This document shows, piece by piece, positions 1 to 39,071 of a stretch of DNA of 39,071 nucleotides. The notes beneath the pieces are model-generated. The model saw only the letters and a list, made by a program, of their open reading frames with translations, was not told where the DNA came from and did no database searches. Each line of letters begins with the position of its first letter. Position 1 is the stretch's first letter. The translations under genes and the position numbers were made by a program. This stretch comes from Stramenopiles sp. TOSAG23-6 (lineage: Eukaryota): positions 1-39,071 of the forward strand of contig LT635938.1 of the NCBI GenBank assembly GCA_900128565.1, given 5' to 3'.

Positions 1-52
1 TTCGTACGAAAAATAAATTCGATTTTTTTGTAAAAAAAAAAATAAAACATAC

Positions 53-1550: not shown

Positions 1551-1614
1551 ATGGATTATGAAAAAATATTTCAATAAAAAATTCGTTAGGTACAAAATTT
1601 CGTATAAAAAATAC

Positions 1615-3513
1615 ATAGACATAAAGCAATGATTGATACTGTCGTTGACTTGATACAACTAATTACGTTTACGACAATATTAAAACATATTTGTCTTCTT
1701 TTACCCTTTTTTTCTGTGATGCATGTATTGGTGAAAAATATTTTTTTTTTGATAAAAAATCATTAGGTACAAAATTTCGTATGAAAAAAAACGTTTTGAA
1801 ATGAATGATGAAAACGTACATATTTTTCGAAAATTTAATAAAAAGGTATATATCATTTGTAGTGAAATTCCTATACAAAATGTACCTAATATATATGGGA
1901 GTATTTGACTACATATTGCATTTAATGTTTTTAATGGAAGCGACCACGACATGCTCATTTATTTTGGTAAAATATTTCAAAAAAAATCTAAAAAATTTTG
2001 TTAGGTACAAAATTTCCTATAAAATTCGAAATTGAAAAAAATAAAACATACATTTTACCCAATGAAGGATCATTTAGAAACAAATGTACTAAAAACTTCA
2101 CAAAAGAAAGACTAAAATTTTCAGATAAAGTTATAATTTTTGGATCATTTTTTGTATCATTTTCGTTCCAAATCTTCAATTCAAATACATGTATTTTGGA
2201 AAAATATTTCCAAAAAAAATCGTTAGGTACAAAATTTCGTACGAAAAAAAATTCAAATTTGAAAAAAAATAAAACGTACATACGCAGAAATTCCAATACA
2301 AAATGAAATAAACGCTACAAAAAATGCACTGCTCATAGTTCGAGAATTATATTTGCTATCCACTCCAGAAGAATGTTTGTATGCTCTATTTTGTTTTTTT
2401 CGTAGGAAACAAGTACAAATACATGAAAACAGCCATGTTGGTGAAAAAATATGTCACACAAAAAAAATCGTTAGGTACGGAATTTTCTATAAAAAAAAAA
2501 ACATTGATATTCATCATAAAAACATATAGGATAGACAAAAATCGTCGACCAATGGAATACATAAGCAAATCGTTAGAAGATTAAAAAATGTATAATTCCC
2601 AGTCATAATTATGAGTACCTGCAAGGCTGATTGTGTAACTGCAGCTGTAAGTCTTAAGAAACGAATAAGTATTGTGAAAAAATATTTCAAAAACAAATCG
2701 TTAGGTACAAAATTTCGTATGAAAAAATTAAATTTAAATCTGAAATTCGTGATGAAAATGTACAGGACAAATAATTAATATAGACAGTGGAATTTCTATA
2801 AGTAGGCAAATTCCAACAGAAAGTTGCTGATAAAACGGAGGCAATTGGTGAGCAAACCATGCAAAAGGTGTTGGTATACACTGTGTGGCATAATGATAAT
2901 CAAGAGCAGTCAAGGATTTCCATGTTTTACACCTTGACTGGAGTTTTACTACTCCCGAGAGAAGCATTAACTTAAAAAAAATTAGGCGAAGCAACCAACG
3001 AACTACATGTGAAGGACTTTTACCATTGTAAATTTTTATCCATGGTGCCCATAGAATTGATGCGGCGCCGACCTCTAAAAGTAAAATATCCCACTGAAAA
3101 CTCATGAACGTCCTACCCGTTGAATAAAGTGAGAAATAGGTGATCCACTGAATATACAAAAATACAGCTGGATAGGTTCCTAATAACACAAAAAAGGAAA
3201 CAAGTACACCAAGAAGAGACAATAGCTCATGAAATGTATCAATATCGAAAGCCAAATGATTGTGAAAGATTGCAAGTGTGGTGGGCTGAAAATTTAACGT
3301 ATTCTCAACAAAGAAGGTGATAGGATCTGAAGTCACTGGTATATTTTGTATAGGAATTAAACCATTTTGTTGAGAGTACAGCCCCGGGTACTGCCAAAAA
3401 TATGAAGAAAATGCAATCAAATATACAAAACCAATTGCTCGAAGAAATATCTTTCTTGACAGTACATACGTACTCTTCTTGTGTTCATTGTCATGCTTGT
3501 GCATGGTTACCAT
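1615..3513 (-). CDS. Lipase maturation factor (LMF2-like), 3'-truncated (exons 3513-2764, 2666-2528, 2434-2280, 2188-2052, 1956-1820, 1722-1615)
   Basis: Motifs [49 protein letters not shown] and [18 protein letters not shown]. The C-terminal LMF domain is not present. Confidence 0.88.
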
Positions 3514-3729
3514 TTAATTTTAATCTACTACTAAGTCTTGATAAAATTTTTGTAGCATTCTGAATATTTTTTGATAATTAAATCATTTGAAAATCACGAA
3601 TTCTGGAACAGAATGACCGTTTCACTTCTTCGAAAAATGAAGTCTAAAATACAGTATCTATCTTGATTTTTGTTGCCTGTGGCTTGTTTTCCATTGCATA
3701 TCGAAATTGAATAAACATCGTAGGTTACA

Positions 3730-6700
3730 ATGGTGGTACCACCAATATTAGTAGACGATATCATTCCCCATCAGTTATTGCCAGAATGGGACGTCTCAAA
3801 GATACCCAACGAAGAAGCAAACGAAGAAGCTTCTCCTTTTGAAGATCCCCAGGGTTTGCCTGAGCTTCCAGCGAATCTTGAGTGTCAAATTTCAGAGTGG
3901 GTTAGACCGAAGGAATTGGCTGCACTAAAGCGCAGTAAGGAAGAATCTAATTCAGCAGGCGATGCAAACACATCCGAGGCAGTGGATGGAAGTCAAAATG
4001 CCGATACATCTGATAATACTACAGAAACTGTAGGAAAAGATAATGAAACTTTGGAGGAAAAAAAGGATGAAACAAAAGATACAGAAGATGAAGATGTAGT
4101 AGCACCAATTGAAGACAAAATTACTTACGCTGTTGCTAAACCAATATATGTTGCAAATACGATAGTAAAAATGTTACCGCGTAAGTTAGTGGCAGCAAGC
4201 AGTGACGCTGCAAAACTTTTAGCTTCACAATTGGAGTTAGTAGGTAATCATTCAAAACTTGTCAAAAACGGGTCTTTTTTATGGGAATTAATTCATCCTC
4301 AATTAGACGAAAACGCCTTGCCAAAACTAAGTAACACTGGAAGATACTTTGTGCGTTTGTTTGTAAGTGGTGCGTGGCGATGTGTCGAAATTGACGATCG
4401 CGTTCCTGTAGACGCCTTGGGGAACTGCCTATTCCCAGTATCAATGGATGCTGGTGAGATTTGGCCACTTATTCTTGCTAAAGCTCTCTATAAAGTGGCA
4501 GCTTCACAACGTGCTACTACTATTGTGAATGATGCTACAAGTCCAACTGTGTTGCGAAGACTCACTGGATGGGTATTCGAGCCATATACGTTAGGTCCTT
4601 TACAAGCATCAATCCCGGTGCAACTGAAAGCGACAGGATATCCTGATATTGACAAAATTGATTCGGATGCGTCTGAAAGTACCGGGCAGAACGACAATGA
4701 AGACTCTACGAATGAAAATAAAACTAGAGTTCCAAGATTACTCTGCCTACTATGTACTGATAGCACCAATGTCAATGGTGTAGAAGTTGGTTGCATTTAT
4801 GGCGTGTCAATGGTAAAACCAAAATCAATAAAGATACAAGGAAGTATTAACTATGCGATGTGGAGACACGAAATTCGCCGAGCTTTTGATACTCTGTCTC
4901 CAGTTGATGGAAAGAAGGAGTCTGTACTTCAAACAGAGCTTGTTGACATGTTGCATGAAGATGATATGCAGCTTGCATTAAAAGCTGCGTGTCTTGCGAA
5001 ACCTGGGGCTTTGAATAATCTTGATATTAGCGCGCAATCAGAGGAAAACAATCAGGCATCGATATCATGGGATGAATTTATTCGCATGTTTGATAATCTT
5101 ATACTAATTGAAGAGTCTGATATTGACGTACCATTCGGTGATATTTTACAAGCTTTTTCACCTGTAACAAATCTTGTATTCTGTCACAATGCACCCAATA
5201 TTAATGTTTCTGAGAAAAAGGCGGAAGATGATGATACTACGGAAACAGAAATTGATACAAATACTAAAACTACAAATATTGTATCAACAAGTTTTCATTG
5301 GAATTGGAAAAGTCCCACAACTGATACTGTTTCTGCAGAAGGTGATGACAACCAAAGTACAATTATAGTAAAGTCAGGAGGTAAAAATAATGCACGTTTG
5401 GAAGATGGATATATACGTCAAGGTGATGGTGATGCGTCCATTGAAGCGGAAAGTTGCATCGAGGAAATGTACTCGCCTATGCTTTGGGTTGATGGAGGTA
5501 TCACAGGAAGTCGTGTGGTTATAAACTTTGAAACAGATGCAACTTTGAAATCGAACACAGATGACGAAAAACACACGGGGTACATTTTGCTTATGGAGGA
5601 AATAAAAGGAAGTCCTTGGAGGGAACAGACCAAAGAGCAAGATGGAATATTTGGGTCACAGAGGCCGTGCGTGCCTCCAAAGACTTACCAAGTGATGTGT
5701 ACACGTGGTGACATTGCTGCTATGTCTTTCAATGTGTCTCCTGGCGAACATTTTTATCGTATGTCTGTTGACTGCTCTTGGGGTTGGAATGTGACATATT
5801 TTTCAGATGCCCCTATTTTATTAGGTCCGGTGACAAAAGTATTAAAAGATGTATCAGGAATGAACGGGACACAATTTAAAAGTCAATATTCACTAGTAGA
5901 AAATGAGGATTTTGTCGAAGAAAGTATTGTTGATGGTTCTAATAATAGTTGGCGCATTCTTGGAGCCCAAGTATTTCGTGTTCCAGAGCAAAGTGGTACT
6001 TCTGTCGGTGCTACATTGCATATGTCGGATCATATATGGCAACAATACGTGCGATTATCAATCATTGATAGAGATACTGGTACAAAGACATCCATGGGAT
6101 CTTTGGAGATGTCTATTCGAAATCTCCCTGCAAATTCGGAAGGGTATTGCCTTGTAGCAACGTATGAAAACTCTGTGAAAGATTTGCCTGGGAGTAAATG
6201 GAGAATGAGTATATTAAGTAGCGACCCATTATTGGATTGTGTCCCAGTTAATTTTGATAAACTGAAGACTGTTCTTGGAGTATACCAACCAAATAAGTAC
6301 AAGCGATTCTTTCGATTACGAATAACATCGCCAACTGGTGATGATGAAGAAGAAACATCTTTCAATCAGCACCTTGCACTGCGACTTTCGGTATCTGACC
6401 CATCAATTTATGTTCAATTGAATGTTCTTATGGTACTGGAAGAAAACCAAAGTGACCAAGATGATATTTTACCCGAACATCCAGTATGTAAATATGTTCG
6501 TAGTGATGGTGGTGTATCTGACGATTTCGTTGTTGTATCTAAACGTGGCAAGGGTTCAGCAGAATTACTGTATGTACCTGGTTTTGGTCCGAAAGGTAAA
6601 GAAGTTTTAATACAAGCTAGTTTCGATGCAGAAAGGTTTTTAGTTCCATCGAAGTGGAGTTCAGAATCTCCCTATTGGGAAAAAGGTGGACAAGATGTCG

Positions 6701-7338
6701 ATGGTGGTGGTGAAGACTCAGAATCAAGTCCTATTTCGAGCATTGATGAGCTCAGTTGGAAACTTACTATGAATAGTAAGATTGCAGTTACCGCTACACC
6801 ATGTAGGAAGCGTGAAGATTTATTCAATAATATTCGTGATCTCTGGGAGAAAAATTCTCCAGGTCGCGCAGAGAATGCAAAGAAATATTTTGATGAAAGA
6901 AATTCAAATAGCAATACTGAAACAAATACCGAAATAAATACTGAAGGAAGTACTGAAGGAAATGAAGATGCTTCTCCAAGTTCAAACATGCGACCAAATA
7001 TTGAACTGAAATATATTGCATCAAATTCTGCCCCTGATGAAGTTTCCGTCATCACCGTAGGCGAATGGAATGACGTAAAAGCATCAAGAAAAAAGCAACT
7101 TGAAGGGATGAAAGAGTTTTGGACGCAATGGGATGAACAAAGAGTCACAAACAAGCAAGAGCGTTTTAGAATACTTCAAAGTATTATTGGTGGAACAGAT
7201 GAGGATGAGACTGCAAGTGGCATATTAGGCGACATGAATAGATCTCAAAAGTCATACAATGCGTTTTTGTTAGATAGATTCAATACAATCACTAAATTAT
7301 CAGAATCGCCAGAAATAGTTCCTACAGAATCTTCATAA
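3730..7338 (+). CDS. Androglobin-like / calpain-like domain protein, 1202 aa, intronless
   Basis: Calpain-type segment GRYFVRLFVSGAWRCVEIDDRVP...EIWPLILAKALYK with no obvious catalytic Cys motif. YQPNKYKRFFR and WEKNSPGRA resemble the androglobin C-terminal region (recalled similarity). Confidence 0.7.
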   Translation: MVVPPILVDDIIPHQLLPEWDVSKIPNEEANEEASPFEDPQGLPELPANLECQISEWVRPKELAALKRSKEESNSAGDANTSEAVDGSQNADTSDNTTETVGKDNETLEEKKDETKDTEDEDVVAPIEDKITYAVAKPIYVANTIVKMLPRKLVAASSDAAKLLASQLELVGNHSKLVKNGSFLWELIHPQLDENALPKLSNTGRYFVRLFVSGAWRCVEIDDRVPVDALGNCLFPVSMDAGEIWPLILAKALYKVAASQRATTIVNDATSPTVLRRLTGWVFEPYTLGPLQASIPVQLKATGYPDIDKIDSDASESTGQNDNEDSTNENKTRVPRLLCLLCTDSTNVNGVEVGCIYGVSMVKPKSIKIQGSINYAMWRHEIRRAFDTLSPVDGKKESVLQTELVDMLHEDDMQLALKAACLAKPGALNNLDISAQSEENNQASISWDEFIRMFDNLILIEESDIDVPFGDILQAFSPVTNLVFCHNAPNINVSEKKAEDDDTTETEIDTNTKTTNIVSTSFHWNWKSPTTDTVSAEGDDNQSTIIVKSGGKNNARLEDGYIRQGDGDASIEAESCIEEMYSPMLWVDGGITGSRVVINFETDATLKSNTDDEKHTGYILLMEEIKGSPWREQTKEQDGIFGSQRPCVPPKTYQVMCTRGDIAAMSFNVSPGEHFYRMSVDCSWGWNVTYFSDAPILLGPVTKVLKDVSGMNGTQFKSQYSLVENEDFVEESIVDGSNNSWRILGAQVFRVPEQSGTSVGATLHMSDHIWQQYVRLSIIDRDTGTKTSMGSLEMSIRNLPANSEGYCLVATYENSVKDLPGSKWRMSILSSDPLLDCVPVNFDKLKTVLGVYQPNKYKRFFRLRITSPTGDDEEETSFNQHLALRLSVSDPSIYVQLNVLMVLEENQSDQDDILPEHPVCKYVRSDGGVSDDFVVVSKRGKGSAELLYVPGFGPKGKEVLIQASFDAERFLVPSKWSSESPYWEKGGQDVDGGGEDSESSPISSIDELSWKLTMNSKIAVTATPCRKREDLFNNIRDLWEKNSPGRAENAKKYFDERNSNSNTETNTEINTEGSTEGNEDASPSSNMRPNIELKYIASNSAPDEVSVITVGEWNDVKASRKKQLEGMKEFWTQWDEQRVTNKQERFRILQSIIGGTDEDETASGILGDMNRSQKSYNAFLLDRFNTITKLSESPEIVPTESS

Positions 7339-7430
7339 TATAATCTATCAATAAAAAGAATAATCCAAAAAATCAAAATATATGTTTTGTTTTATATTTA
7401 TTACAGTAGCAATACTATATAATCATTCTA

Positions 7431-8951
7431 TTAAGCCTGGGTGTAGTGCTGAAGTCTGTACAATAAAACCTTGCCTTTGTCATTTCCTATAGAAAGAAAG
7501 CCACTATGTGGGCTAAATGAAGTAGAACTAACGTACCCTAAAGGTGTGTTTGAAGTAGGCCAATTTTGGTAAGTTGTGAAACTTGGACAATGAACAATTT
7601 TAAATTGATCTTTAATTCGTTGAGACCGAATTGAAAGCAACTGTGAATCATGGTTAAACGTTAAACCATCAATGGCTGTGGTTAAATTCATAATAGCTTT
7701 GGTTGGTACAGGTGTAGCTTCTTTAGATGCCTTTTCTGCATCATATATGTTAACTACACCTGCTTCTGATCCAATTGCGTAATATTTACCATTTGGAGAA
7801 ACTGCAATTGCACTGCCTGTCATTCCACCTTCATCAGCGTGCCTGTGAATACATCTTCTGTCATTCAGACTCCATCTGTACACATCTCCATCAGTACCAA
7901 CAGTGAGTAACTCAGAACAATCAGGCGTAAAAGCAACAGCACGAACAGCCCCGTTCATTTTGAGGTTGGCAATCCATTGTTTTGTTTTTCCTGAAACTAG
8001 TATCACATATCCGTCATTACCCAAAAAAGCAATCCAACGACCATCTGACGAAGCCACAACCTTTTCAAGAGATTTCTCTTTACGACCAGCAATACGCGGA
8101 ATTTTAAGAACAGAACCTGATGCTATATCAACTGTGTAAAAGAATGGTCGACGGCCAGTTGCAATTATTTGTTCTGATCCCACTGCTGAAGAACCACAAC
8201 CTGAAAATGTTGCAGTCCTGATGGGCATGTCTGGAAATACAACACCTTGAATTTTTCTATTAAACTTTCCATCTATATCAAATAGTCTCAATTTTTTATC
8301 CAATCCAGCAGTAAGCATCAACGAGCGTCTCGTGTGAAATTCTACAGATTGCACAACAGCATCAGAAATTTCTTCAGCATTTGCGTCTTTTACTCGCAAT
8401 ACCGAGAGTTGTTCCTTTCTAATTGCAGCAGTTGAAGACCTCAGCATTGAGGCAGATGTTTTAAACAAATCTACAGCCAGACCATTCGTCATGTCATCAG
8501 CAATGGCAGAAGCAAACTTGAGACTTGGGGGCACTTCAGGTATGGCGGCCCACGACGTCGCAGGGTTCATTTTACAAAATTGCGAACGAAGACGACGCGC
8601 GTATTCAGCACCTGATACAACTGTTTCTTCTTCTGTCTTTCGAAGTTTCCGAAGCCGGTTTGTTGCACTAATATCAAAACTCTCTCTATCATCATCTGAA
8701 TCATTCCATGCAGGTTTTAAACACAGCTTTCTCTTACCGCCTGATTTTGATGAATTTCGAAAGTCGTTGTTTATTGTTTCTGAAGTACCACCTGTAAAAA
8801 TTGCATCACCTTCATTTCCAGACTCAGAGTCAGACATACTGTCACTCTCCTCCCCAAATTTCAATGCTGGACCACCAAATAGACTAGATGCAAGCTCTTT
8901 TTCTGAATCATCTGCATGCATTATCGCTGGAGTTGGTTTAGATTCTCCCAT
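7431..8951 (-). CDS. UTP18: U3 snoRNA-associated protein 18 (WD40)
   Basis: N-terminal KPAWNDSDD and RLRKLRK motifs, WD40 repeats, and C-terminal YQNWPT..TPLG..FSPHSGFLSIGNDKGKVLLYRLQHY. Confidence 0.92.
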   Translation of the reverse strand: MGESKPTPAIMHADDSEKELASSLFGGPALKFGEESDSMSDSESGNEGDAIFTGGTSETINNDFRNSSKSGGKRKLCLKPAWNDSDDDRESFDISATNRLRKLRKTEEETVVSGAEYARRLRSQFCKMNPATSWAAIPEVPPSLKFASAIADDMTNGLAVDLFKTSASMLRSSTAAIRKEQLSVLRVKDANAEEISDAVVQSVEFHTRRSLMLTAGLDKKLRLFDIDGKFNRKIQGVVFPDMPIRTATFSGCGSSAVGSEQIIATGRRPFFYTVDIASGSVLKIPRIAGRKEKSLEKVVASSDGRWIAFLGNDGYVILVSGKTKQWIANLKMNGAVRAVAFTPDCSELLTVGTDGDVYRWSLNDRRCIHRHADEGGMTGSAIAVSPNGKYYAIGSEAGVVNIYDAEKASKEATPVPTKAIMNLTTAIDGLTFNHDSQLLSIRSQRIKDQFKIVHCPSFTTYQNWPTSNTPLGYVSSTSFSPHSGFLSIGNDKGKVLLYRLQHYTQA

Positions 8952-9170
8952 TCTGTGTTTATAGGTCAGAGAAACTTGTACTTACACTAATCCTAGTTTT
9001 TCACTCGCTGACTATTTATTTCCGATTAATTGCACGAACCTGCTTTTCGACCAGAAATGTAACTGTTGTGTCGGTTGAAAGTAATTTGAGTTCATTTATA
9101 TGCATCATGCAAAACCCAAAAGGTAATACAAACAAATCATTTGGTTCATTTTTTATTTCAAAATGAGAAA

Positions 9171-9893
9171 ATGAATAGCCTTATCAAACATAAACTGCAC
9201 AAAAATATGCAACAAATAGATGAGAGTTCAAATTTTGTTATGGAGGGGTTGAGTGAACTTCGTTTTCTCAAAGGAAAACTTCCAGTTCCAAGTCCATCAG
9301 AAAAACTTCCAAAAACAAAATTTCCAGTAAAACAGAATATGGATATTTCGTACCCAGACTTATGCCCTGATATAGCTTACCAAAATGCTTCCACGGATCG
9401 TTTCTTAGAACTTCCAAAGCCACGTACGCAAGTAATAAAACCATTCAGAAGTCAAGTTTATCTCACGAAGGAGGAGAAAATTTTAATAGTGCAACAAAGA
9501 GCTGGAAAAATCAAGAAAGACACGAAACTCATGGAAGATATACCATCACGACACATACAAAGAAATGTTAAGTTTGGTTCTACTCAAACTAATCAATACT
9601 TTCGCAATTCTCGTGATGTTACTTATCAAGTGGATGATTTTGATCTACATGATTCTAAATTTCATAGAACCATCGATGAGGGTATTACAAATGTCGTTAA
9701 TTCAAAAGTCGCTAGTTGGCGAGCGGCACAATACTCAGCTCTAGCAGCGTTGCATGCAGAGGTAGTTACAGGGAAAATGTTACTACGTTTAAATGGAATG
9801 AAAAGTCAGAATTTTATACGGCAAGTTACTAAAATGCGATTAGATAGAAACAAATGTCAGTTTTTGTGGAATAATTTGATAAATCATAAATGA
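9171..9893 (+). CDS. Hypothetical protein (about 240 aa from the first ATG)
   Basis: Long ORF filling the gap between UTP18 and the 7TM gene; no recognised motif. Confidence 0.55.
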   Translation: MNSLIKHKLHKNMQQIDESSNFVMEGLSELRFLKGKLPVPSPSEKLPKTKFPVKQNMDISYPDLCPDIAYQNASTDRFLELPKPRTQVIKPFRSQVYLTKEEKILIVQQRAGKIKKDTKLMEDIPSRHIQRNVKFGSTQTNQYFRNSRDVTYQVDDFDLHDSKFHRTIDEGITNVVNSKVASWRAAQYSALAALHAEVVTGKMLLRLNGMKSQNFIRQVTKMRLDRNKCQFLWNNLINHK

Positions 9894-9972
9894 AAAACTA
9901 TAGTTATTTTTATTACATTATACCAAATTGGTACAAAAGCAAAATTAAATTGCATTACATTGTTTGCAATAG

Positions 9973-11256
9973 TTAAGACCTTGTGTTTTTAATAGGAAGC
10001 TTGCTTAAATTTATGCTCCTACAAACTTCCGCATTTAAATTTGAGTTGCAGTTTGTCGATGATATTTTCTGTTGCGTGGGTTGCATACTACGCCAGCATG
10101 AAAATAGTACATCATTTTTATACCCGTACATATATAACATAAGAAATCCTTGAAGGAAGAATATAAAATTATACGCAAGTGACAAAGCTGGAAAACTATT
10201 AATTATCAAGCCACAGCCACTGCTAGAGAGACTATCTACATTTCCGTCTATTAATCCAGACATTTTAGAACAACTTTTCAAAGATGCATTTAGATCATTT
10301 ATATTCGAATGGTCTCTAAAACTTTGAATGATACAATCTTGCCACAAACTCGATTTATTAACAAGGCCCAATGCAGGTTTCATATTTCCATTGAGGTAAT
10401 TAGCCAAGAGGCAAGATCGCCAAGAGACACTCGCTTTCCTTTTGACATGAAAGACCTTTAAAAGATTTAGGAGCATTATTGGGACTACCATCGAAGAGAA
10501 ACTAAGCATAAATGTCAAAAATCCTGTCAGCCCCAAGCAACATGTTTTCACACCTCTAAGTTTTTGTATTTTTCTTAATTCTATAAAACAAATACAGAGC
10601 AAAACGTTGCCAACAAACCAAATGAATGTAATAGGTCCGAAAAATAACACCCATCTCACAGGCCCAGTACCCCTAAAAAATAAACAGAAACTATTTGGTT
10701 CAGTGTGCCCAAATGCTTTATAAGTAAGAAGGATAGATACTATTATCAGAGGGAAAAGAAAACAAAAAACTAACGAACGAAAGGGGTCTAACCTTACTTC
10801 ACTTTTTAGCTTTACGAAAAATTGTAACACGGTTCGAAACCATAAACAGCACATGACTAGAGTGAAAAAAGCTATAGATGTTGCCTGTATAATACAAGGT
10901 GCAGTTTTGGAGTTAAAGCCGTGCCTTTTCATTTGAACGTGTGATACGTTGTCAAAACAAAATGATCCATGCTCCCCTCCAGTAATGTCACGAAGAGTTA
11001 TAGAAAAAACCAGAAAGAAGCTTACAATCAAAGTCACAATCGGTGACCTCAATTTCCTCAATTTGGGATCGATTAAGTATGCTAATATATGTAATCCTAG
11101 AAGAAGGCAAATGATAGTCCCAACGGTTGTTTCTAGAACGAGCATCCTATTGGAATCTCTCTTGGAAATAAACGGAGCTTCGCAAGGAATTTCACAGTCT
11201 CCAAGTGGGCTACGTTCTAGTGGTACAGGACATGATTTTAAAGAATCAAAATACAT
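9973..11256 (-). CDS. Frizzled/Smoothened-like seven-transmembrane receptor (5' end uncertain)
   Basis: CPVPL...CEIPCEAPF linker followed by about 7 hydrophobic segments and Cys-containing loops, the pattern of class F-like GPCRs. Confidence 0.6.
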   Translation of the reverse strand: MYFDSLKSCPVPLERSPLGDCEIPCEAPFISKRDSNRMLVLETTVGTIICLLLGLHILAYLIDPKLRKLRSPIVTLIVSFFLVFSITLRDITGGEHGSFCFDNVSHVQMKRHGFNSKTAPCIIQATSIAFFTLVMCCLWFRTVLQFFVKLKSEVRLDPFRSLVFCFLFPLIIVSILLTYKAFGHTEPNSFCLFFRGTGPVRWVLFFGPITFIWFVGNVLLCICFIELRKIQKLRGVKTCCLGLTGFLTFMLSFSSMVVPIMLLNLLKVFHVKRKASVSWRSCLLANYLNGNMKPALGLVNKSSLWQDCIIQSFRDHSNINDLNASLKSCSKMSGLIDGNVDSLSSSGCGLIINSFPALSLAYNFIFFLQGFLMLYMYGYKNDVLFSCWRSMQPTQQKISSTNCNSNLNAEVCRSINLSKLPIKNTRS

Positions 11257-11654
11257 TTCACGTAATATATGACCAAGGAATTAATATATGGTATGCCTAA
11301 TGGAATGTACACAGAAACGTATGGCGTAACCTTCCCTTTTGCTTCTATGTTACTGTGTAATTGAATTCGTGGTGGTGGGTAGCAAAGCGGTAGCAAAAGT
11401 TGATGGATGACCGTTCTTTAAAACTTTCCCTAAAACTTTCTTCGTGTTGTGTTACTTGAAAGTTTGAAACCTAAAAATAAATTTGAAATTGAGCTTTCGA
11501 GTCAATATTATTAGTCAAACGGTCAAAAAATCCAGGACATAGAGAGATAAGAAGACTCTCAAGAAGAAAAAATGAACTAAGTCTTGGACATTACACATTT
11601 TGAGTTCATCACGAAAAGTCTTGTTAGTGTTGTTACTTGGCTAATTTGAAGCTT

Positions 11655-14522
11655 ATGTGGTATCTAGAGAGCACTGCGAATGCTACGACTGTGTCACAAT
11701 TTTGGTTGGTAGCAGGTAGGCACACGGTGGGCCGAAAGGGAGCAATTGCGTTGGTTAACGACAAGTCTGTTAGTCGTCATCACGCGACGGTTATAGTAGC
11801 TGTTTCATTTGACTGTAAAGACGAACAATCAATTCCAAGTATTCAAATAGAAGATAAATCCAAATTTGGTACAAGTGTAAATGGAGAACGTCTCCAAAAA
11901 GGAGAAACTTACAATCTTTGTGACGGAAGCCTCATCGAGTTTGGCGTTTCGAAGTCTGTGTTTGTATTACGTTGGAAGCCGCTTTTATTATGTGTTTCTC
12001 GTGCAGACAAAGCATCTAAAAAGAGAGTTAAAGTTTTAGCAATGAAAATCGGTGCTCATATCACAAGCGTTTGGTGCAGTCGTTGTACTCATCTGGTTCT
12101 CTGTGGTACATTTGCGATAACGTTCAAAGTAATTTGGGCTCTTCTTCAAAGCAAACCGATTATTACACCTAGATGGCTCAGCGATGTCGCGGGAGGTCAA
12201 CCTACATCGATGAGTAATGGCACAGTACATAAATTACGCACGACTTTACCTCAAATACAATCTTATCTTCCTGAAGGTCAGGAGTCGTATACTTGTCAAC
12301 TATTACCAAATTCTCAGAGAAATCAAATGTTTCAAGGTTTTACTTTTATTTTCACTCATCCTTCAGACTATTCAGATATTGTCGAAGCTGGTCAGGCGCA
12401 AACTATTCGGTTGTTTTTATCTACTGTTGAATGCACAGATGATGATTTTCAAAAGTGGTCTAAAAATGATACATGCTTTGTGTACATTTAAAAAATTGAA
12501 TGTTTTACATAAATTATTTTTCGTACGAAAATTTGTGCCTAACAAAAACAATTAAATTAAAATATTTTTTTCACAATACATGGTTGAACCTATCCAAGGT
12601 CTAGTTCATAGATCCTCACAAATTTCATCCATAACACAGGCTAGTCAAGTATTTGGTGTATCTCATTCTAAAGGGCATTTAAATACATTTTGTTCAGATT
12701 TTATTCAGACTGAGAATTTTAATAGAGCTTCAGAAGCAGGAATTGGTGTATTTTCAGAAGGCGATTTCCCAAAGTGTATACTACAAATGATTACCCCAAT
12801 TAAAAAAAACGTAGAAAAAACTGTACACCAAGAGATTATATATGAAAATCCTGTAGGAAAAATGAATAATGAAAAATCCAAAAATGTATCTGTCATGAAT
12901 GCTTGTCGTGTAAATGTAGATAATAAAATAATTCAACAAGTAGAAGATAAAATAATTCAACAAGTAGATAATAAAATAATTCAACAAGTAGAAGAAATCA
13001 ATAATTGCGAAGCGAGTACATCCGTAGACAAACCTAACACACATAATACTACAGTGAAAACTTCATCGAAGAAAGATATTTTGTCGTCTTCGACAAAACA
13101 AATAACAAGAAGTGCAAGGAAGAAACGATGTGGGAGGAATGGACGCCGAGTCGGTCATATTGGTAAGAGAAAACCTATTGAAGTATTTACAAATGATAAT
13201 AAAAGCGATGTAAACGATGTGCAAAATAGTGCAGAGGACAAAGAGAGTGATAAAATTGTGAAGGAGTGTGTTGAAAGTACCAAAGTTGATTGTGGCAATG
13301 ATGAAGTTGTACCATCACTAGTACAAGATAATGAAGTTATACCATCACTAGTACAAAATAATGAAGTTATACCATCACTAGTTCAAGATAATGAAGTTAT
13401 ACCACCACTAGTTCAAGATAATGTAGTTATACCACCACTAGTTCAAGATAATGAAGTTGTACCATCACTAATACAAGATAATGAAGTTATACCACAACTA
13501 GTAATTGATAGCAATAAAAATAAATCTGCATGTCGTTGGCAAACAAAAAAGCGTCATCGAAATGAAATAGGAAATAAAAGTGAAAATTCTTCAAATGAAA
13601 ATGATTCTGATAATGACGGTTTCATTTCAAAAAAGAGGAAAACTCAATCATCATCATCACAAAAAAAAGGAGGCGACATTCTTGTCGGCGACTTGGAAGA
13701 AATAGATACTCTAAACCCGAGTAATGTTGATAATAGTAGTAATGCGTTTATACCTCCAAATGAGCGAAGACATGTATGTTTTATTTTTTTTTCAATTTCG
13801 AATTTTTTTTCATACGAAATTTTGTACCTAACGATTTGTTTTTGAAATATTTTTCCAAAATACATTTGAACGAAAATGGTCCATGTTGGATCTCGGCAAT
13901 ACACAAAGAAAATACATCGAATAGTTTGAACAGTTTTGATGATGAAAAGAATGTAAAATATGCAAAAGTAATTCCACGACAAATTCATACAAATAATCAA
14001 ATACAATCTAATGATGAAAATGAGGGAAGTGCGATTAAATTTTCTCAGGATCATCGGAAAAATAGTGAGGACTCTGGTACTAATTTTAAAAAATTTCGGA
14101 AAAATTTTTACACAGTTTCTAAACAACATCACAGAGTTGCATTTTGTAGTCCAAGAGAATATGTTATACCTGGAAATGGTTCGGAAGCGTTGCAACGTCG
14201 TCGCAACCAATATGCACACGAGGAGATGCTTGAGCGTGAAGCTGAGGAGCTTTGGGTTTTTGATCAGAGGCAAGTGAAGAAAGCTCCATTATCAAAAGCA
14301 CAACAAGAAAAAGCAGAAAATGCAAAGTCTAAAGCAAAATCTAAAGCAAACGAAGCGAAACAAAACGCAAATGCAATTGATTGGCAACAATTGCGCCGTG
14401 ATGGTTTAGTTCAAAAACAAAAAGTTTCTGTTCTAAAAGCCTTCTTACGCAGCAGAAAGTTAAAAGTTGGAGGTCGGAAGGGTGAATTAGTCGAGAGAGT
14501 TTTAATTGAACTTGGGGGATAA
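11655..14522 (+). CDS. NBS1: Nibrin/NBS1 (FHA-BRCT, Mre11-binding motif) with C-terminal SAP-like domain; exons 11655-12481, 12582-13773, 13866-14522
   Basis: MWYL start, FHA (VGRK...DKSVSRHHA...DKSKFGTSVNG), BRCT (CTHLV...TFKVIWALL...PIITPRWL) and NFKKFRK. The three ORF pieces join in frame on removing two repeat inserts. Confidence 0.88.
12482..12581 (+). mobile_element. Introner-like intron, GT...AT, 100 nt (mirror 26456-26555)
   Basis: tgt|GTACAT...CGTACGAAAATTTGTGCCTAAC...AATATTTTTTTCACAATACAT|g; removal gives F-V-V-E in frame. Confidence 0.75.
12916..12996 (+). repeat. 24-bp coding tandem repeat, about 3 copies (VDNKIIQQ)
   Basis: gtagataataaaataattcaacaa units. Confidence 0.9.
13301..13503 (+). 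repeat. 30-bp coding minisatellite, about 7 copies (DNEVIPSLVQ)
   Basis: atgaagttataccatcactagtacaagata units with point variants. Confidence 0.93.
13774..13865 (+). mobile_element. Introner-like intron, GT...AT, 92 nt (mirror 25172-25263)
   Basis: acat|GTATGT...CATACGAAATTTTGTACCTAAC...AATATTTTTCCAAAATACAT|ttg; removal gives R-R-H-L-N-E. ACAT is duplicated at the borders. Confidence 0.82.
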
Positions 14523-14600
14523 GCTATTTCAAAATTTTCGCACATTTTTTTTTGTTTAGTTTATTTAGTTGCTACTATAAACTTTAATTTGACTAAGTCT

Positions 14601-16688
14601 TCATTGTTGAACTGCTTTAATATACACATCAGAGCACATCTCATTAGTAAAGGAAATCACTTTAAATGCTGGTTGAACTTCTGCTATCTTTAATAACCAT
14701 TCTTTACAAGCCCCACATGGATTTAAAGGGTTTGATGCAACTCTAATCGGATAGCCGTTATCTGCTATAGTGTCAGGAGCTTCTATTCCTTGTTCAAATA
14801 AAAATTTATTATAAGAATCACCACGTCGCCTAGATCTTCTACTCGTGGAAGAAGCATCATTTAAACAAGAATTGTGGTTACTATTTACTCCTATTTTTTT
14901 TTGGTGTATACAAGGGCTTTGACTACGACATGTAAAATTTAATGTTCTTTCGATTTTATTATCATCCTCATTTATTGCGTTTTTCCTTGAACTTGATATA
15001 TGATTTTGAGGTTTTGCCCTGTTTCGCTTCTTCTTGATTGGACTAGAAACTACAGGAATTTTTGGTAGTGATAACACTGCTATCATTTTTAAGTCTCTAC
15101 GCCTAAGGGTTAAATCAGAAGCAAGAGCAGTACCTATACAATTTCGTTCAGCACATAAACTACCAGTAGGCATTGATACCTCTAAATTAATTCCACAGTG
15201 AAATATTGGCTCTTTTTGGTTTTCTTTTTTTATCATCAAAACAGCTAACACGGGACTTCTCGTTTTTCGTAACCAGAAAGAAGATAACTCTGTTTCATAT
15301 TTTGTGTCTTTTGTATTTATTTTATTGACTTCTGATTTTGAAATATTTGATTCATTATCATTTGCCGAATTGTCATCATATACACGAGCACACATCATCT
15401 CTGGACCAAATTCAGTATCTGTAAAATTAGATTCCTCAACTTTTTCTTTTTTATTGTCTTTACCTTGGTGATCAAAACTTTTAAGAAATGACCTTTTGAA
15501 CTTTATGACTTCTTTTACAAGTCTTTGTACATCTCTTGATGTGTCACAGACACGTTGTGCAGGCTGCATTTCTAATTGCTCAAATGTCTCCCAACACAAC
15601 AAAGAGGGGCGTAGACGTTGAGACTGCCAGAAGGATTTTGGTTGCCAAAAATGAATATAATCTGGGCGAAAACGTCGTAAACCGGCAATGAGTGCGGAAG
15701 TGCGAGCAGGAGTTCCGTCAGTGACAGTAAGACAAAGATTAAAAAAATCTTTCCAGTCATCTAGAATTTCTGATGCGAGATACTCGCAATGTGCTTCAAT
15801 GTGTGGCTTCAAAACTGTACTAATAAATGCGCTATTTTGTCTGTATCTGAAGACTCCAGAACCACTGTTTAATGTAAATACTTCAATTTCAGGAAAAAAT
15901 GTCTGTACAAATACTTGTAGAATCATGGCAGAGCCTTCCGTTGAGTTTCCTTTTTCTTGATGATCAGGATTCCGTGGAGCACCAGATCCAGAAATTAAGT
16001 ACAGAATTTGTTTACTATTTGTAGGGTGAGCCATGGCTTTTCTCCACTTCGGAATAACCAGAGCAAGGAGTGGGAAAAATATATATATAAAATTAGGTGG
16101 AACATTTGCATCTATCAAACGCCCATCATTACGTACATGAAATTCGGACCAACCACCCAACTGTAAAGGTTTTTGTCCAAGTTTTGATCGAGACTCTTGC
16201 AAATTAAACCCAGCGATGACTCGTTGAGGTATTTCATTTTTGCTATTTAAACTATCTTCTGTGTTGTGCCAACCTTTTGTTTCTATTTCTCCAGGTTGTT
16301 TTTGTAATTGTGTGCGGGAGTTAGTGTCAGCTCCAAATGATAATGGGAATAATACTGGTTCCAAGCATCCTGCTACTTCTGCTTCTTTTGTAAAATAAAG
16401 TAGAGCTTCCATATGAGACATGAGACAGCTGAACTTTGATTTCATAAATATTTGCTGAGCAAAATCTGGATTTGTCTTACCGTCACCACGCTGTTCAATA
16501 TGGCGAGCATATTGAAAATTCTGACTCTTTGGACGAAAAGTATTCTGATGGGCACATAGTACAACATCACTATGAGATACATTATGAACTAAAATCTCTA
16601 AAGGTTTTGGACACGTCGAACTTGAGTTACTTTGTATATTTTTATTGTTCAATTCGTAGGCCTCGTCATTTCTCAACGAAATATCCAT
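14601..16688 (-). CDS. Cytidine-deaminase-domain protein with a large uncharacterised N-terminal region
   Basis: Zn-binding motifs GINLE...LCAERNCIG and NPCGACKEWL, separated by a low-complexity insert. First ATG at 16688. Confidence 0.8.
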   Translation of the reverse strand: MDISLRNDEAYELNNKNIQSNSSSTCPKPLEILVHNVSHSDVVLCAHQNTFRPKSQNFQYARHIEQRGDGKTNPDFAQQIFMKSKFSCLMSHMEALLYFTKEAEVAGCLEPVLFPLSFGADTNSRTQLQKQPGEIETKGWHNTEDSLNSKNEIPQRVIAGFNLQESRSKLGQKPLQLGGWSEFHVRNDGRLIDANVPPNFIYIFFPLLALVIPKWRKAMAHPTNSKQILYLISGSGAPRNPDHQEKGNSTEGSAMILQVFVQTFFPEIEVFTLNSGSGVFRYRQNSAFISTVLKPHIEAHCEYLASEILDDWKDFFNLCLTVTDGTPARTSALIAGLRRFRPDYIHFWQPKSFWQSQRLRPSLLCWETFEQLEMQPAQRVCDTSRDVQRLVKEVIKFKRSFLKSFDHQGKDNKKEKVEESNFTDTEFGPEMMCARVYDDNSANDNESNISKSEVNKINTKDTKYETELSSFWLRKTRSPVLAVLMIKKENQKEPIFHCGINLEVSMPTGSLCAERNCIGTALASDLTLRRRDLKMIAVLSLPKIPVVSSPIKKKRNRAKPQNHISSSRKNAINEDDNKIERTLNFTCRSQSPCIHQKKIGVNSNHNSCLNDASSTSRRSRRRGDSYNKFLFEQGIEAPDTIADNGYPIRVASNPLNPCGACKEWLLKIAEVQPAFKVISFTNEMCSDVYIKAVQQ

Positions 16689-16991
16689 GAGTGAATACAA
16701 AATGCACTAGTATGTGTTTGGAAAAAAATTGAGGCTTGAATAAATACAACCCTACGTAAATTCACAAGTTGATGCAACACAAACGCAAAACTAGAACAAA
16801 TAAACAGAAGGTTTTTCAGATCTGATATCTTTACTAGATCGATCTCGATCTTGTCTTTGGTGATATCTTGTGGAGAGAGACTTTGTTTGAAATTTAAATT
16901 GAAAACGAACGAACGTCAACCGCTTCGTTCGCCGATAATTTCAAATGATTCGCGTTGGATATTATCAGATATCAGGAGATTTCGTGTTTTA

Positions 16992-18076
16992 TCACAATTT
17001 TATTTTTTCATGAATTTTATAAATATTCTTCTCTATTTTGTTCATAGCTATTTCTGTAGCATTATACACTTCTTCTTGACTAAGCGATGCATCAATAGGA
17101 TACACTTTAGAATCGTCAATTTCTCTGAAAAGTTCGACTATTGGAAAAGTTTCTTTATAAAATGTGTTGAACCCTATGAAGTGAAAAAATATTTCAAACA
17201 TTTGAAATTCGTTAGGTACGAAATTTTGTATGAAAAAAAAAAAATGAAGTGGATAAACATACTTTTTCTAATTGATAAAATATTATCATCTTCTCTACCA
17301 CTGACTTTCCCTCTTTCTAATAGTCGCCTCTCTAATATCTTTTGATCGCATGTATAGTACAACATACCACTATATTTGATTGTAGGGTTAGGTGCAGTTT
17401 TTCCGACAGAATTTATAAAATTTTCATTTCTCAAAAGCTTCAGTTGATCAATCCAACCAACGAAATTATCCAAATTTCTTGGGAATCCATCCACCAGAAA
17501 GTTTTGTTTATCACTTTGTGCAATTTTTCGTTGAATCAATCGAACAGTCAATTCTGCAGGAACAATTGAGCCATCTTTAATACACTTGGAAATTAAAATG
17601 CCGTCTTGACTCTTGGGATTACATTGTTCTTCTCGTAAACAATCTCCGGCTGAAATGTGAGTAAACTTGGAATATTTTTTTTCTATCAATTTCGATTGAG
17701 TACCTTTTCCAGAACCAGGACCACCAAGTATGAAGACTACCGACTTAATGGGGTGTAAAGACTCTGTTTTAGTTAAGCTCTCCACATCAAAAAACCCTGA
17801 CATACTCAAGTTTTCTTTCATATGAGGTGAAAGCCAGGTAGTAAATTTTTGTGTTGAGCACTCTACATCAAAGAAACCTGACATACTCAAAGTTTCTTGA
17901 ATATGTGGTGAAAGCCAGGTAGTAAAACTTCGTACTTTAGCTGGATCGACATGAGCTTGGAATCTACAGAAACTTCCCGATAAAGATAAAACAGAAGAAC
18001 GTTGTGCGAGATAACTCGAATGAGGTTTCGGCCAGCGACTTAAGAAACGATTGAAGAAACGATTAAACGGCTGCAT
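16992..18076 (-). CDS. UMP-CMP kinase (adenylate kinase family) with N-terminal extension; exons 18076-17263, 17173-16992
   Basis: VFILGGPGSGKGTQS, HISAGDCLR, FLVDGFPRN and, after splicing, GREDDNILSIRK-RFNTF. Confidence 0.9.
17174..17262 (-). mobile_element. Introner-family intron with canonical GT-AG ends, 89 nt
   Basis: aaa|GTATGT...CATACAAAATTTCGTACCTAAC...AATATTTTTTCACTTCATAG|gg; restores the conserved K-R-F-N-T-F. Confidence 0.88.
17781..17926 (-). repeat. 81-bp-period coding duplication (FTTWLSPHxxExLSMSGFFDVE twice)
   Basis: Copies at 17781-17845 and 17862-17926. Confidence 0.9.
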
Positions 18077-18444
18077 AACAAAAGCTATAAATATTGATGC
18101 TGATATTCTACCTTTGTAAAGTTATGTGGAAGGTATTACGAAGCGTTCAAAAAAGTACAGTTTATGCAATATTCATGTAAAGTCGCACTTTTACAGTCAA
18201 AAGTCTCCAGAAAGTTCAAAAAGTAGTCAATTCAATTGACGACATCTGGATTTTGGACTGACTTGTACAACACGAATTCTGAGTTCCTACGAAAAATTTG
18301 CTACCCTTTAAGTAGGAAATTTTGTACCAAATACCATGGCCATCGAAAACCAGTAATATAAGTGGTTCCTGTGCAACCGGATAATACGTAGGTAATTTTG
18401 ACAGAACGACGACTTCACTTGTAAATTTCCGAATTTCGTCTTAA

Positions 18445-19678
18445 ATGGTACTTCATCCTGAATGCGATGACTATAATGATGACATAGAAGCAAGTAGAGT
18501 ACAAATATGTGACATTAAAGTTGAAAGCGGTACTGTACCACCAAATATACTAACCAAAGTAAGCAAAGAGCCATCATCGTGGCAAAAACAAAAAACAGGA
18601 TTATTACTTGGCACTATTGCAGTTCTATTGTTTTCTCCAGATGCTGTTGTTGTAAAGATAGGTTTAGAACACAATATTACTCCCTTCCAAGTAGCATATC
18701 TAAAATACTTTCCTTGTGTACTTGTCCTAGCGCTGGTGTCCTTGGGTTCTTTCATTTTAACCAAAGTCAAGTCAGCTGATAGTACTATAAACCCAATATC
18801 GAAGGAAACTAGTATTGATGTCAGCGTGAGACTAAAATACATTTTAATTGGTTCTTTGGCATGTTGCCTTACAAACATTTGTTTTACTCTGGCATTTTCA
18901 TATGCAACAGCAGCCGCTGTGCTATCAGTAAGTGCTCTTTCGCCTGTTTGGGCGTCACTTGGGGCGAAATATATTTTGGGTGAGAAGCTAGCAAAAATTA
19001 CCACGTTTGCATGCGTGGCTGTAGTATTAGGTATCATCGTGTCATCTAGCGGGTATTTTCTATTTGATGAAAAAGATGAAAATGAAAGTTTATACACTAT
19101 TTTGTTGGGAATAGGTCTAGGACTAGGAGCCGGCATTTCTGTAGCTGCATAGTATTTAAAATTTACTACAAGACAAATTCATAATAATTTAATCCTTTGA
19201 TAATCTCATGATTTACTCATTTATATTATACTTGACATATTACATGAACTACAGCGCTCTAATTTTACGATATGCGTACACACGATATCCAGGAATCAAT
19301 ATGACGAGTACACCTATTATTGGGTTAGGCTTCTCAGGAATTTTAGCTTTCATCGTTTCGTACTTCATCCAACGACCTGGACTTAACTTTGAGGGCGACT
19401 TATTCGGCACTTTAGTGGTTGGTATTGATGGACTCTTGCTTTTGCCACCAGCATTTCTTTGTTATACATCAGCTCCGAAATTCATTGATCCTGCCGTGGT
19501 AGGTGTTTTAATGCAACTCGAAGCAGTCTTTGGACCTTTACTTGCCTTTTTCATTATTAATGAAAAAGCCAAAATTACGACGATTGTTGGAGGTTCAATT
19601 ATCATATTAACGGTAATAGCACACGAAATTGCAAGAATGCCATCAATGAAAAGAACTTGGATCGGTCAATTCGGATAA
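18445..19678 (+). CDS. EamA/DMT-family transporter; exons 18445-19151, 19255-19678
   Basis: About 10 hydrophobic segments with the paired motifs LSPVWASLGAKYILGEK and LEAVFGPLLAFFIINEK. Confidence 0.85.
19152..19254 (+). other. Conventional GT-AG spliceosomal intron, 103 nt, unrelated to the repeat family
   Basis: ta|GTATTT...CTTGAC...CTACAG|c joins V-A-A-Y-A-L-I-L in frame; lacks the family motif. Confidence 0.82.
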
Positions 19679-19963
19679 TAATGTAATCCAACATTTTATG
19701 TATAATGAGCAAGATAATAAAAAACAAACATGTAGTATGATTTTTTTTTTTTTATTTCGTGTTTTATACAGTTTCAAAAAGTAACGATTTTTATTTGTTA
19801 TTTTGCTATATTTCTCAAAATAATATACCGAGTGTTTGACAAAAAACAGTGTGAGTGATGAGTATTCTTTTGGATTATCATTAAAATGTTGTTGTGAAGT
19901 TAGGTAAATATTAGGACACATTTACTAACTTAGGATTTTCTTCAGTCCCAATTAGTTGGGAAA

Positions 19964-37422: not shown

Positions 37423-37521
37423 GTATTTTTTATTTTTTTTTTACAAAAAAATCGAATTTTTTTTTCGTACGAAATTTTGTACCTAACGAATTTTTTATTG
37501 AAATATTTTTTCATAATCCAT
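37423..37521 (+). mobile_element. Introner-like element forming the LMF / 5-phosphatase chimeric junction (99 nt here, 64 nt in the mirror at 1551-1614)
   Basis: tat|GTATTT...GTACCTAAC...CATAATCCAT|ga; flanking exons belong to different protein families and are out of phase. Confidence 0.75.
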
Positions 37522-39019: not shown

Positions 39020-39071
39020 GTATGTTTTATTTTTTTTTTTACAAAAAAATCGAATTTATTTTTCGTACGAA
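39020..39071 (+). mobile_element. Introner-like element truncated by the window end
   Basis: cat|GTATGTTTTATTTT...TCGAATTT...TTCGTACGAA. Confidence 0.78.

Follow-up and report, generated by a model that had tools for sequence, protein, structure and literature searches.

A high-copy, introner-like intron family with putative GT...AT borders in a MAST-3-type marine stramenopile

The focal intron and its relatives in the window

Contig LT635938.1 of Stramenopiles sp. TOSAG23-6 (assembly GCA_900128565.1), whose 39,071 nucleotides (nt) analyzed here we refer to as the window, is AT rich (27-40% GC), compact and eukaryotic, and encodes androglobin/calpain-like and UTP18-like WD40 proteins, LMF1, adenylate kinase, an EamA transporter and two LmjF365940-type deaminases. 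The subject of this report is a 92-nt element on the plus strand at positions 13774-13865, intron B, which is one member of a multi-copy intron family. Positions 13770-13865 and the bases that follow read ..agACAT^GTATGTTTTA...TTTTGTACCTAAC...CCAAAATACAT^ttgaac, where carets mark the borders and the whole element between them is GTATGTTTTATTTTTTTTTCAATTTCGAATTTTTTTTCATACGAAATTTTGTACCTAACGATTTGTTTTTGAAATATTTTTCCAAAATACAT. Intron B separates two open reading frames (ORFs) of a single gene, 12580..13845 (frame 1) and 13776..14522 (frame 0), and removal of 13774-13865 (92 mod 3 = 2) joins both, frame 1 to frame 0. With ACAT found at each junction, the cut could be shifted by as much as 4 nt without any change in the product, which leaves the register of this copy ambiguous.

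The window is an inverted duplication in which arms 1-1616/37456-39071 and 1604-16115/22922-37433 are 100% complementary, giving arms of ~16.1 kb around a unique centre of 6.8 kb (16116-22921), with a single 35-nt indel between them. The palindrome looks like an artefact of amplification or assembly, or else is very recent. Because of it, every family copy in the arms is present twice and counts taken from the raw window are doubled; the mirror positions were verified. A 16-mer from the core of the family has 24 matches in the window at up to two mismatches, compared with 0.12 expected (100 shuffles). Given the palindrome, the independent copies are not 24 but 11 that do not end in AG, one that ends in AG, one that is cut by the window end, and a doubtful one at 18317. 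The last, a two-mismatch core match in intergenic DNA, was ruled out as a family copy. The copies are located as follows, with mirror positions on the minus strand.

12482 to 12581, plus strand: intron A, 100 nt, GTACAT...GTGCCTAAC...CACAATACAT, in the same gene as B; T alone is repeated; mirror 26456-26555
13774 to 13865, plus strand: intron B, 92 nt, GTATGT...TTTGTACCTAAC...AATACAT, in an FHA-BRCT...SAP gene with the SAP domain in the downstream exon; mirror 25172-25263, identical
17174 to 17262, minus strand: AG-ending member, 89 nt, GTATGT...GTACCTAAC...TTCACTTCATAG, in an adenylate-kinase-like gene; preceded by an exonic A, not T
36274 to 36370, plus strand: intron C1, 97 nt, ending ..ATACTT, first intron of an LMF1-like gene; mirror 2667-2763
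36510 to 36602, plus strand: intron C2, 93 nt, starting ATATGT and ending ..CAACAT, placed by frame joining; mirror 2435-2527
36758 to 36848, plus strand: intron C3, 91 nt, 92% identical to B, ATGTA repeated across the junctions; mirror 2189-2279
36986 to 37080, plus strand: intron C4, 95 nt, ending AAAT after an exonic AAAT; mirror 1957-2051
37218 to 37314, plus strand: intron C5, 97 nt, GTACGT...CCTAAT...CCAATACAT; mirror 1723-1819
37423 to 37521, plus strand: copy C6, 99 nt, with a counterpart of 64 nt in the left arm (1551-1614); probable chimera
37661 to 37770, plus strand: intron C7, 110 nt, in a 5-phosphatase-like gene; mirror 1302-1411
37930 to 38026, plus strand: intron C8, 97 nt, junction ..FFPTY^KLYEG, within a PF22669 profile match; mirror 1046-1142
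38786 to 38912, plus strand: intron C9, 127 nt, with an internal duplication and ACATG repeated across the junctions; mirror 160-286
39020 to 39071, plus strand: 5' part of a further copy after ..TCAT, cut by the window end; mirror 1-52

The MAFFT consensus of 12 copies reads ..ATGTATGTTTTA...TTTTTTTTCATACGAAATTTTGTACCTAACGA...GAAATATTTTTTCACAATACATG, and three aligned blocks stand out, (A)T^GTA(T/C)GTTTTA, TTTTTTTTC(A/G)TACGAAATTTTGTACCTAACGA and GAAATATTTTT(T/C)CA(C/A)AATACAT^G. In individual copies these correspond to GTA(T/C)GT as the 5' splice signal, to TTTCGTACGAAATTTTGTACCTAAC as a long branch region and to a conserved 3' block of ~22 nt, GAAATATTTTTYCAMAATACAT. Copies sit after an exonic T, mostly as (C)AT, and usually before G. 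Global pairwise identity runs from 59 to 92% (B-C3 92, B-C4 85, B-C6 84, B-C1 82), with shuffled pairs giving a mean of 61.5% and a maximum of 69%; the values for the AG-ending copy are approximate, as its coordinates were 9 nt off in that comparison. Similarity between introns of unrelated genes covers their whole length, spacers included, and establishes them as a repeat family. Subfamilies are also apparent, with 5' and 3' variants shared together: one group carries a ..ACAAAAAAATCGAA.. insert and another ..CAATTTCGAA.., and A and C1 have both GTACAT and CACAATAC in common. Folding of 6 of the 11 copies returned no common or significant RNA structure (z-scores +0.1 to -2.3), and given the lack of a shared fold, we set aside a model in which base pairing between the ends would specify the borders. 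The terminal dinucleotide of C1 is TT, or CT after a 1-nt slide. Removal of the AG-ending copy leaves a single open frame, ..NILSIRKRFNTFYKETFP..., that joins ..SIRK to RFNTFYKE... The 3' end of this copy is ..TTCAT+AG, and it looks like the usual ..CAT end with AG added.

One reading of such a family is that its members are old, ordinary introns of an intron-poor genome with unusually long and strict splice signals, and are not copies of one another. A compact genome with long intronless ORFs, yeast-like 5' splice and branch signals and the conserved 3' block all suit it. Nevertheless, we consider it very unlikely, given that identity of 81-92% extends through the spacers, that the subfamilies are discrete, and that eight copies fall within 1.75 kb while the neighbouring ORFs of 1202, 699, 506 and 427 amino acids (aa) are intronless.

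Copy C6 requires separate treatment. Upstream of it lie LMF1 exons that reach position ~409 of the LMF hidden Markov model (HMM), whereas the first exon downstream starts midway through a 5-phosphatase domain (profile position 145 of 288, SHIP2 residues 169-197). The 35-nt indel between the palindrome arms is located within this copy. The C-terminal half of LMF1 (HMM 419-600) was found in P0241, a coding sequence whose start lies within a family intron; that intron belongs to the same subfamily and has the same phase. C6 is therefore probably a chimera of two family copies, in which the N-terminal half of LMF1 is followed by a 5-phosphatase gene of which the C-terminal half is present, the joint having been made most simply through the repeat, by amplification or by assembly. 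Its 5' flank and 3' end may not form a true pair and are best left out of the counts. More generally, assemblies of this genome are probably broken or wrongly joined at the repeated introns.

Several observations bear on the source of the DNA. The UTP18-like ORF is 98% identical to a coding sequence from a EukProt set with a MAST-3 label, and the second-best named match of LMF1 carries a EukProt label beginning INCI, which we take to be a cultured MAST-3 member. The window sequence is present in seawater metagenomes. On sequence similarity the source, an uncultured protist, is taken as a MAST-3-type marine stramenopile.

Other features of the window are recorded here for completeness. The host gene of intron B contains at least seven tandem 30-nt (10-aa) repeats and a second repeat of 24 nt (13268-13537, 12916-12992), and metagenomic DNA run X3 holds a variant of the same gene with a 9-nt ATC insertion at 13646. 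The ORFs at 14601-16700 (minus) and 19964-24436 (plus) have different N-terminal parts and the same LmjF365940-type deaminase end, because the palindrome boundary lies inside both; they are either paralogues with identical 3' halves or the product of one artificial joint. Two adjacent ORFs at 18445-19678 have one EamA domain each and are separated by a stop and 55 nt; an intron joining them was sought at 19152-19208 and no border was found there, and the pair could represent two genes, a frameshift or an unrecognised intron. At gathering thresholds, Rfam has zero matches in the window.

Reading frames, homology and intron borders

Removal of the copies as GT...AT units joins an open upstream frame to an open downstream frame in 10 of 11 cases, C6 being the exception, and in B, C3, C7 and C9 the downstream frame that is predicted is the sole open one. 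Protein homology locates the borders more finely. At C1 the junction ..LIICP^IRFLRL is residue exact, falling on consecutive profile positions with no gap (tblastn and an HMM of 79 LMF homologues, P0121-P0199). Around C7 and C8, exons match positions 145-182 and 234-286 of Pfam PF22669, with the 51 positions in between accounted for by the intervening exon of 53 aa. Together, reading frame and homology demonstrate the borders of the copies. Residue-exact junctions were also sought in PDB alignments, and there P0274, P0263 and P0268 align outside the intron borders or have gene models that are garbled at them; of the three 5-phosphatase exons, two are without a PDB counterpart.

Canonical GY-AG borders do not describe the family, as only one of the 12 complete copies in the window ends in AG. 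Nine of the 11 non-AG copies have no AG at all between the branch and the end. The first AG past the branch is in the wrong frame or leads to a stop in A, B, C1, C2 and C9 (5/11). At C1 the first four such AGs are out of frame and the first in-frame AG would remove 16 residues that align to the LMF profile, and at C9 none of the six listed downstream AGs (to +73) is in an open frame. In the remaining six copies the first AG past the branch is in frame; C4 and C8 have it 3 nt past the proposed end. Given that the first AG fails in five copies, at C1 also by homology, at least five copies cannot be GT-AG introns.

These counts also bear on the most conventional interpretation, that the copies are normal GT-AG introns with the AG slightly downstream, or else that the genes are decaying or misassembled and nothing is removed. 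In its favor are the six copies with an in-frame first AG, including C4 and C8, and a palindromic contig with at least one chimeric joint. Against it stand the five copies in which that AG gives the wrong frame or a stop, the profile-aligned residues that would be deleted at C1, the open and conserved exons that flank 10 of 11 copies, and the presence of the same introns in a contig from a diverged strain, P0242, that holds both C3 and C4. We regard this interpretation as scarcely credible.

Because short matches cross the junctions, several registers have to be compared. As the original prediction had it, the borders can slide from GT...AT to TG...CA, and often to AT...AC: the first two fit 11 of 11 copies, and the third fits 7 of 11. 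Four of the 11 copies have no upstream AT, and AT...AC was rejected as a general register. GT...AT is the most uniform, with a GT start in 10 of 11 copies and an AT end in 10 of 11, the other end being TT.

From the reading frames and the GTATGT and CCTAAC splice signals we infer that removal takes place at the RNA level. Excision from DNA, in the manner of internal eliminated sequences, was considered and rejected: a DNA contig from run X3 spans intron A, the family is abundant in DNA runs, and splice signals are present.

Abundance, spread and the ends of the element

In marine metagenomes the summed contig depth over the copies is 100-2000x that of flanking DNA. For DNA run X3 it reaches 6586 in the bin that contains intron B and 16726 in the bin 2002-2668, and is 8-10 in single-copy bins. 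These depths come from 8485 contigs and are summed over contigs and strains, and B accounts for 92 of the 667 bases of its bin. The high abundance of the family is evident from these values, which suggest a copy number of the order of thousands per genome equivalent, as a rough figure.

Public gene models also contain the family. A profile of the intron read in its open frame matched 36 proteins at E <= 10, of which 28 are annotated coding sequences of a single EukProt set with the MAST-3 label, four are from ENA, three from Logan and one from another source. The core ..NFVPN.. is present in 35 of the 36, and the Pfam domains of these proteins are unrelated (kinase, HSP70, MFS, TPR). The EukProt gene models read through the intron as if it were coding, so it went unnoticed in public annotation, and models of this lineage would be wrong in part. 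A 30-position profile run against 1.84 billion representatives returned eight matches at E <= 0.001, one of them unrelated, the profile being short and of little power. Matches to the 16-nt core were found at no fewer than 118 loci in metagenome contigs, i.e. at least 118; blastn of three window introns against these 118 gave no match longer than 22 nt, none of the 118 has GTA[TC]GT within 60 nt upstream, and the core matches look like chance (eight were inspected by eye). The 21-nt core had zero matches in viral contigs and zero in the genome contigs searched. Separately, P0263, compared with a solved structure of the Kae1/OSGEP type, has extra in-frame insertions of 14, 3 and 5 aa that are foreign to this protein family, and these may be other, very short retained introns.

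How might such a family have spread? The seven consecutive exons between C1 and C8 (36371-37929) measure 139, 155, 137, 137, 108, 139 and 159 nt, a coefficient of variation of 0.11 that has P = 2e-5 under uniform placement. Introners reportedly lie in nucleosome linkers, an observation attributed to Huff and colleagues in 2016. A preference of introners for nucleosome linkers is also reported in the sections of Gozashti et al. 2022 (PMC9860276) that deal with their location. Regular exons of nucleosome size are therefore read as a sign of insertion at the DNA level, on spacing alone.

Spread through RNA is the alternative here: excised introns would be reverse spliced at (C)AU^G sites, copied to DNA and recombined into the gene, leaving no terminal repeats and no duplication. 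All 13 of 13 copies are genic and in the sense orientation, element borders coincide exactly with splice borders, and the consensus ACAT^G occurs at both junctions, as if read by one machinery. Fungal introner-like elements are read in this way in the part of Gozashti et al. 2022 (PMC9860276) devoted to them. On the other hand, reverse splicing does not predict regular exons of ~140 nt, and a stable RNA fold is lacking in the six copies folded. Moreover, the window is almost all coding and antisense insertions would be lethal, so that the orientation bias says little. Spread through RNA is in our view improbable.

According to the original prediction, intron B is an element like a miniature inverted-repeat transposable element (MITE), with short terminal inverted repeats (TIRs) and an AT target duplication that supplies the 3' dinucleotide. 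The descriptive basis of this proposal is sound. The MAFFT consensus of the 12 copies confirms ATGTAT/ATACAT as inverted repeats at the ends, and our counts reproduce those given: in each of the 11 complete non-AG copies the upstream exon ends in T and so does the intron, seven of the 11 repeat at least AT, and three repeat 4 nt (ACAT, AAAT, ACAT). With the cut copy included, exonic T precedes 12 of 12 window copies. Likewise, the prediction has no transposase in the window, and none of the 25 ORFs of at least 100 aa that were scanned has a transposase domain. What holds of the proposal itself is the introner-like, non-autonomous and high-copy character of the element, whereas the short TIR and the AT duplication supplying the 3' dinucleotide are unproven.

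Translated introns in public proteins extend the sample, their junctions being read back into codons under the assumption of GTATGT- or GTACGT-type starts. Cys precedes (M/T)FYFF in 10 of 10, which gives T at exon position -1, and YV(L/F)FF follows Met in nine and Ile in one, giving AT at -2/-1. T is thus found at -1 in 20 of 20 informative peptide junctions, nine third-frame junctions being uninformative for that position. At -2, 16 of 19 have A and the other three G. Among 29 peptide 3' ends, two (or three) would allow AG, namely those of P0266 and P0274, where the final codon is Gln, and perhaps that of P0243, with Arg; the rest are of the CAT type or its variants. As set out in the treatment of target-site duplications in Gozashti et al. 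2022 (PMC9860276), matches common to all copies cannot separate a duplication from a preference in insertion site or in exon-side splicing. The T and AT shared by all copies are therefore uninformative on duplication.

For matches specific to each locus, we compared the trinucleotide upstream of the intron with the last three intron bases in 10 window copies (C6 left out) and eight peptide-inferred copies. Eight pairs were identical, six of them CAT/CAT, one AAT (C4) and one CGT (the second intron of P0244), and 10 were different. Among the 12 copies with an upstream trinucleotide other than CAT, the intron ended in CAT in nine and CTT in one, and followed the exon in two. In the six copies whose exon position -2 is not A (A, C1, C2, C7, P0244 and P0259), intron position -2 follows the exon in one. 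C4 is the only clean locus-specific flank match in the window, and a permutation test for such matches in the window gave p = 0.007 when C6 was included and p = 0.077 when it was left out. As a general feature of the family, we reject a duplication of 3-4 nt, and one of 1-2 nt is indistinguishable from a site preference. The terminal ACAT is best read as the element's own end. The consensus ACAT^G is common to both junctions, as AG^G is in ordinary introns, and this symmetry could equally stem from the splicing machinery.

The inverted ends are similarly ambiguous. The 6-nt repeat counts two exonic bases, and inside the intron it amounts to GTAT/ATAC or TGTAT/ATACA (4-5 nt). Over its full range of 4-7 nt, the 5' half is the 5' splice signal, copies with GTACGT show no matching change at the 3' end, and there is no extension; as evidence for a TIR, the ends are weak. 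A MITE of the form GTAT...ATAC, with a 4-nt TIR and a duplicated AT target whose 3' copy forms the last two intron bases, draws on the consensus ends ATGTAT and ATACAT, on AT before 7 of 11 window copies and A at -2 in 16 of 19 informative peptide junctions, on the second intron of P0244 with CGT apparently on both sides, and on an exon spacing that suggests DNA-level insertion. Weighing against it are an AT that is common to all copies and hence uninformative by the published reasoning (PMC9860276, in the passages cited above), a G or C at exon -2 that is echoed inside the intron in one of six copies (the C1 pair being CT vs TT), and an inverted repeat that shares bases with the 5' splice signal and shows no parallel change in the GTAC variants. 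Furthermore, no intergenic or antisense copy and no transposase was found within the window. We consider a MITE of this kind unlikely, though the strongest of the alternatives.

Taken together, the focal 92 nt probably represent one member of an introner-like intron family of a MAST-3-type marine stramenopile, a family that is non-autonomous and present in high copy number. Under this interpretation the copies would be removed from the pre-mRNA by the major (U2-type) spliceosome at GT...AT (TG...CA gives the same mRNA), with the 3' cut set by the conserved 3' block instead of by an AG. The family would have spread by insertion at the DNA level into nucleosome linkers, leaving exons of ~140 nt. 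The terminal ACAT would be carried by the element, the exonic (C)AT would reflect a target or splice preference, and any target duplication would be limited to 1-2 nt.

Some observations weigh against this interpretation and are collected here. For the six copies in which the first AG is in frame, taken alone, the frame permits a GT-AG version that drops 1-14 codons. No intron-spanning joint is among the 15 listed of 386 joints from two RNA and two DNA metagenome runs (positions 1-20000), and contigs from the RNA libraries also hold intron sequence, at high summed depth. The frames around C6 stay unjoined after removal, and every intron detectable in the window is a family member, with no ordinary intron of the organism for comparison. 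C4 (AAAT) and the second intron of P0244 (CGT) match their own exons, which is more than expected without a duplication, and the genic, sense placement of all copies also fits spread through RNA.

Implications and comparison with known systems

Whether a MAST-3-type lineage splices thousands of introner-derived introns at a fixed ..ACAU^, chosen by the ~22-nt 3' block rather than by AG, is a question on which we are evenly divided; it would be the second, independent genome-wide departure of the major spliceosome from the AG rule after that of Fritillaria. If true, the departure escaped notice because gene models translate straight through the introns. If the introns are cut at ..CAT, a burst of introners can install a non-AG 3' splice site genome-wide, and the second splicing step and U2AF-type recognition without AG would become testable in a free-living protist. 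The 28 coding sequences that translate the intron would also mean that gene counts, protein sequences and gene-decay calls of the lineage may be distorted, and low gene counts or pseudogene calls in MAST-3 assemblies might be due in part to translated introns. The question of transposon footprints decides whether the 3' site came from the target or from the element. A large introner survey, by the account of its filtering steps (PMC12130899), discarded families with unfamiliar splice sites that lacked RNA support; if the present reading is true, surveys that start from annotated introns and filter in this way would miss such families, and the known range of introners would be biased. No description of such introns in MAST lineages was found in the literature searched, and in the main text of PMC5778133 the word "intron" occurs twice only, both times in the methods.

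The family can be set beside several known kinds of unusual intron. Its reading of AT...AC after a 2-nt slide in 7 of 11 copies, and its long, conserved branch region, recall U12-type AT-AC introns. Introns of the U12 type have their branch 10-20 nt from the end and a 5' consensus of their own. By contrast, the present family has GTA(T/C)GT at the 5' end and its branch 34-54 nt from the 3' end, and 4 of 11 copies cannot take AT...AC. Non-conventional introns of euglenids, diplonemids and Amoebophrya would be expected to show long pairing between their ends and varied borders with no 5' GT signal. The present family differs from them in that no end pairing is shared among the six copies folded, and in that the borders are uniform with a 5' GT signal.

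Closer parallels exist among introners. Introner elements were reportedly described in Micromonas pusilla and Aureococcus anophagefferens by Huff, Zilberman and Roy in 2016. Like those elements, the members of the present family are short and nearly identical introns, non-autonomous and spread over many unrelated genes in a marine picoeukaryote, with sense orientation and no internal transposase, and their spacing leaves nucleosome-sized exons. In the sections of PMC9860276 that describe them, the Micromonas and Aureococcus elements have clear TIRs, duplications of 3-9 bp and GY-AG borders, whereas the present family has inverted ends of 5-7 nt, an unproven duplication and a ..CAT end. Other introner families provide one splice site themselves and obtain the second from the duplication, among them that of Chrysochromulina sp., which the corresponding passage of Gozashti et al. 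2022 (PMC9860276) describes as possessing a 5' site of its own and a duplication of 4 bp, without an inverted repeat. This is the architecture that the original prediction proposed, the element bringing GT and the branch and the target giving the last intron bases. As that passage has it, however, the duplicated bases in Chrysochromulina vary by site, while the present family keeps the CAT of its ACAT end in 9 of 12 copies whose exon differs.

The elements of Amoebophrya (Farhat et al. 2021, PMC7789003) provide another comparison, being repeated introns of a marine protist with non-GT-AG borders. In the part of that paper that characterizes them, direct repeats of 3-5 nt overlap the exon/intron borders and inverted repeats of 8-20 nt form hairpins. 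Their end dinucleotides are there described as highly variable, with no family motif, in contrast to the uniform GT...AT, the strong branch and 5' signals and the lack of a significant fold (6/11 folded) in the present family.

A precedent for splicing without AG is the tunicate Fritillaria borealis (NAR 2026), an animal in which, as stated in the relevant passages of PMC13326754, non-AG introns are spliced by the U2-type machinery, U2AF paralogues are divergent, and an AU 3' end was used as a binding probe. In the same passages the authors tie non-canonical introns to introner transposons with weak splice sites. Borders in Fritillaria are very diverse at both ends, as reported there, whereas in the present family the 5' end is canonical and the 3' end alone departs, and does so uniformly. 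The family thus shares the behaviour of introners, and appears to differ from the known ones in that its 3' end is uniformly non-AG while its 5' end and its branch stay canonical.

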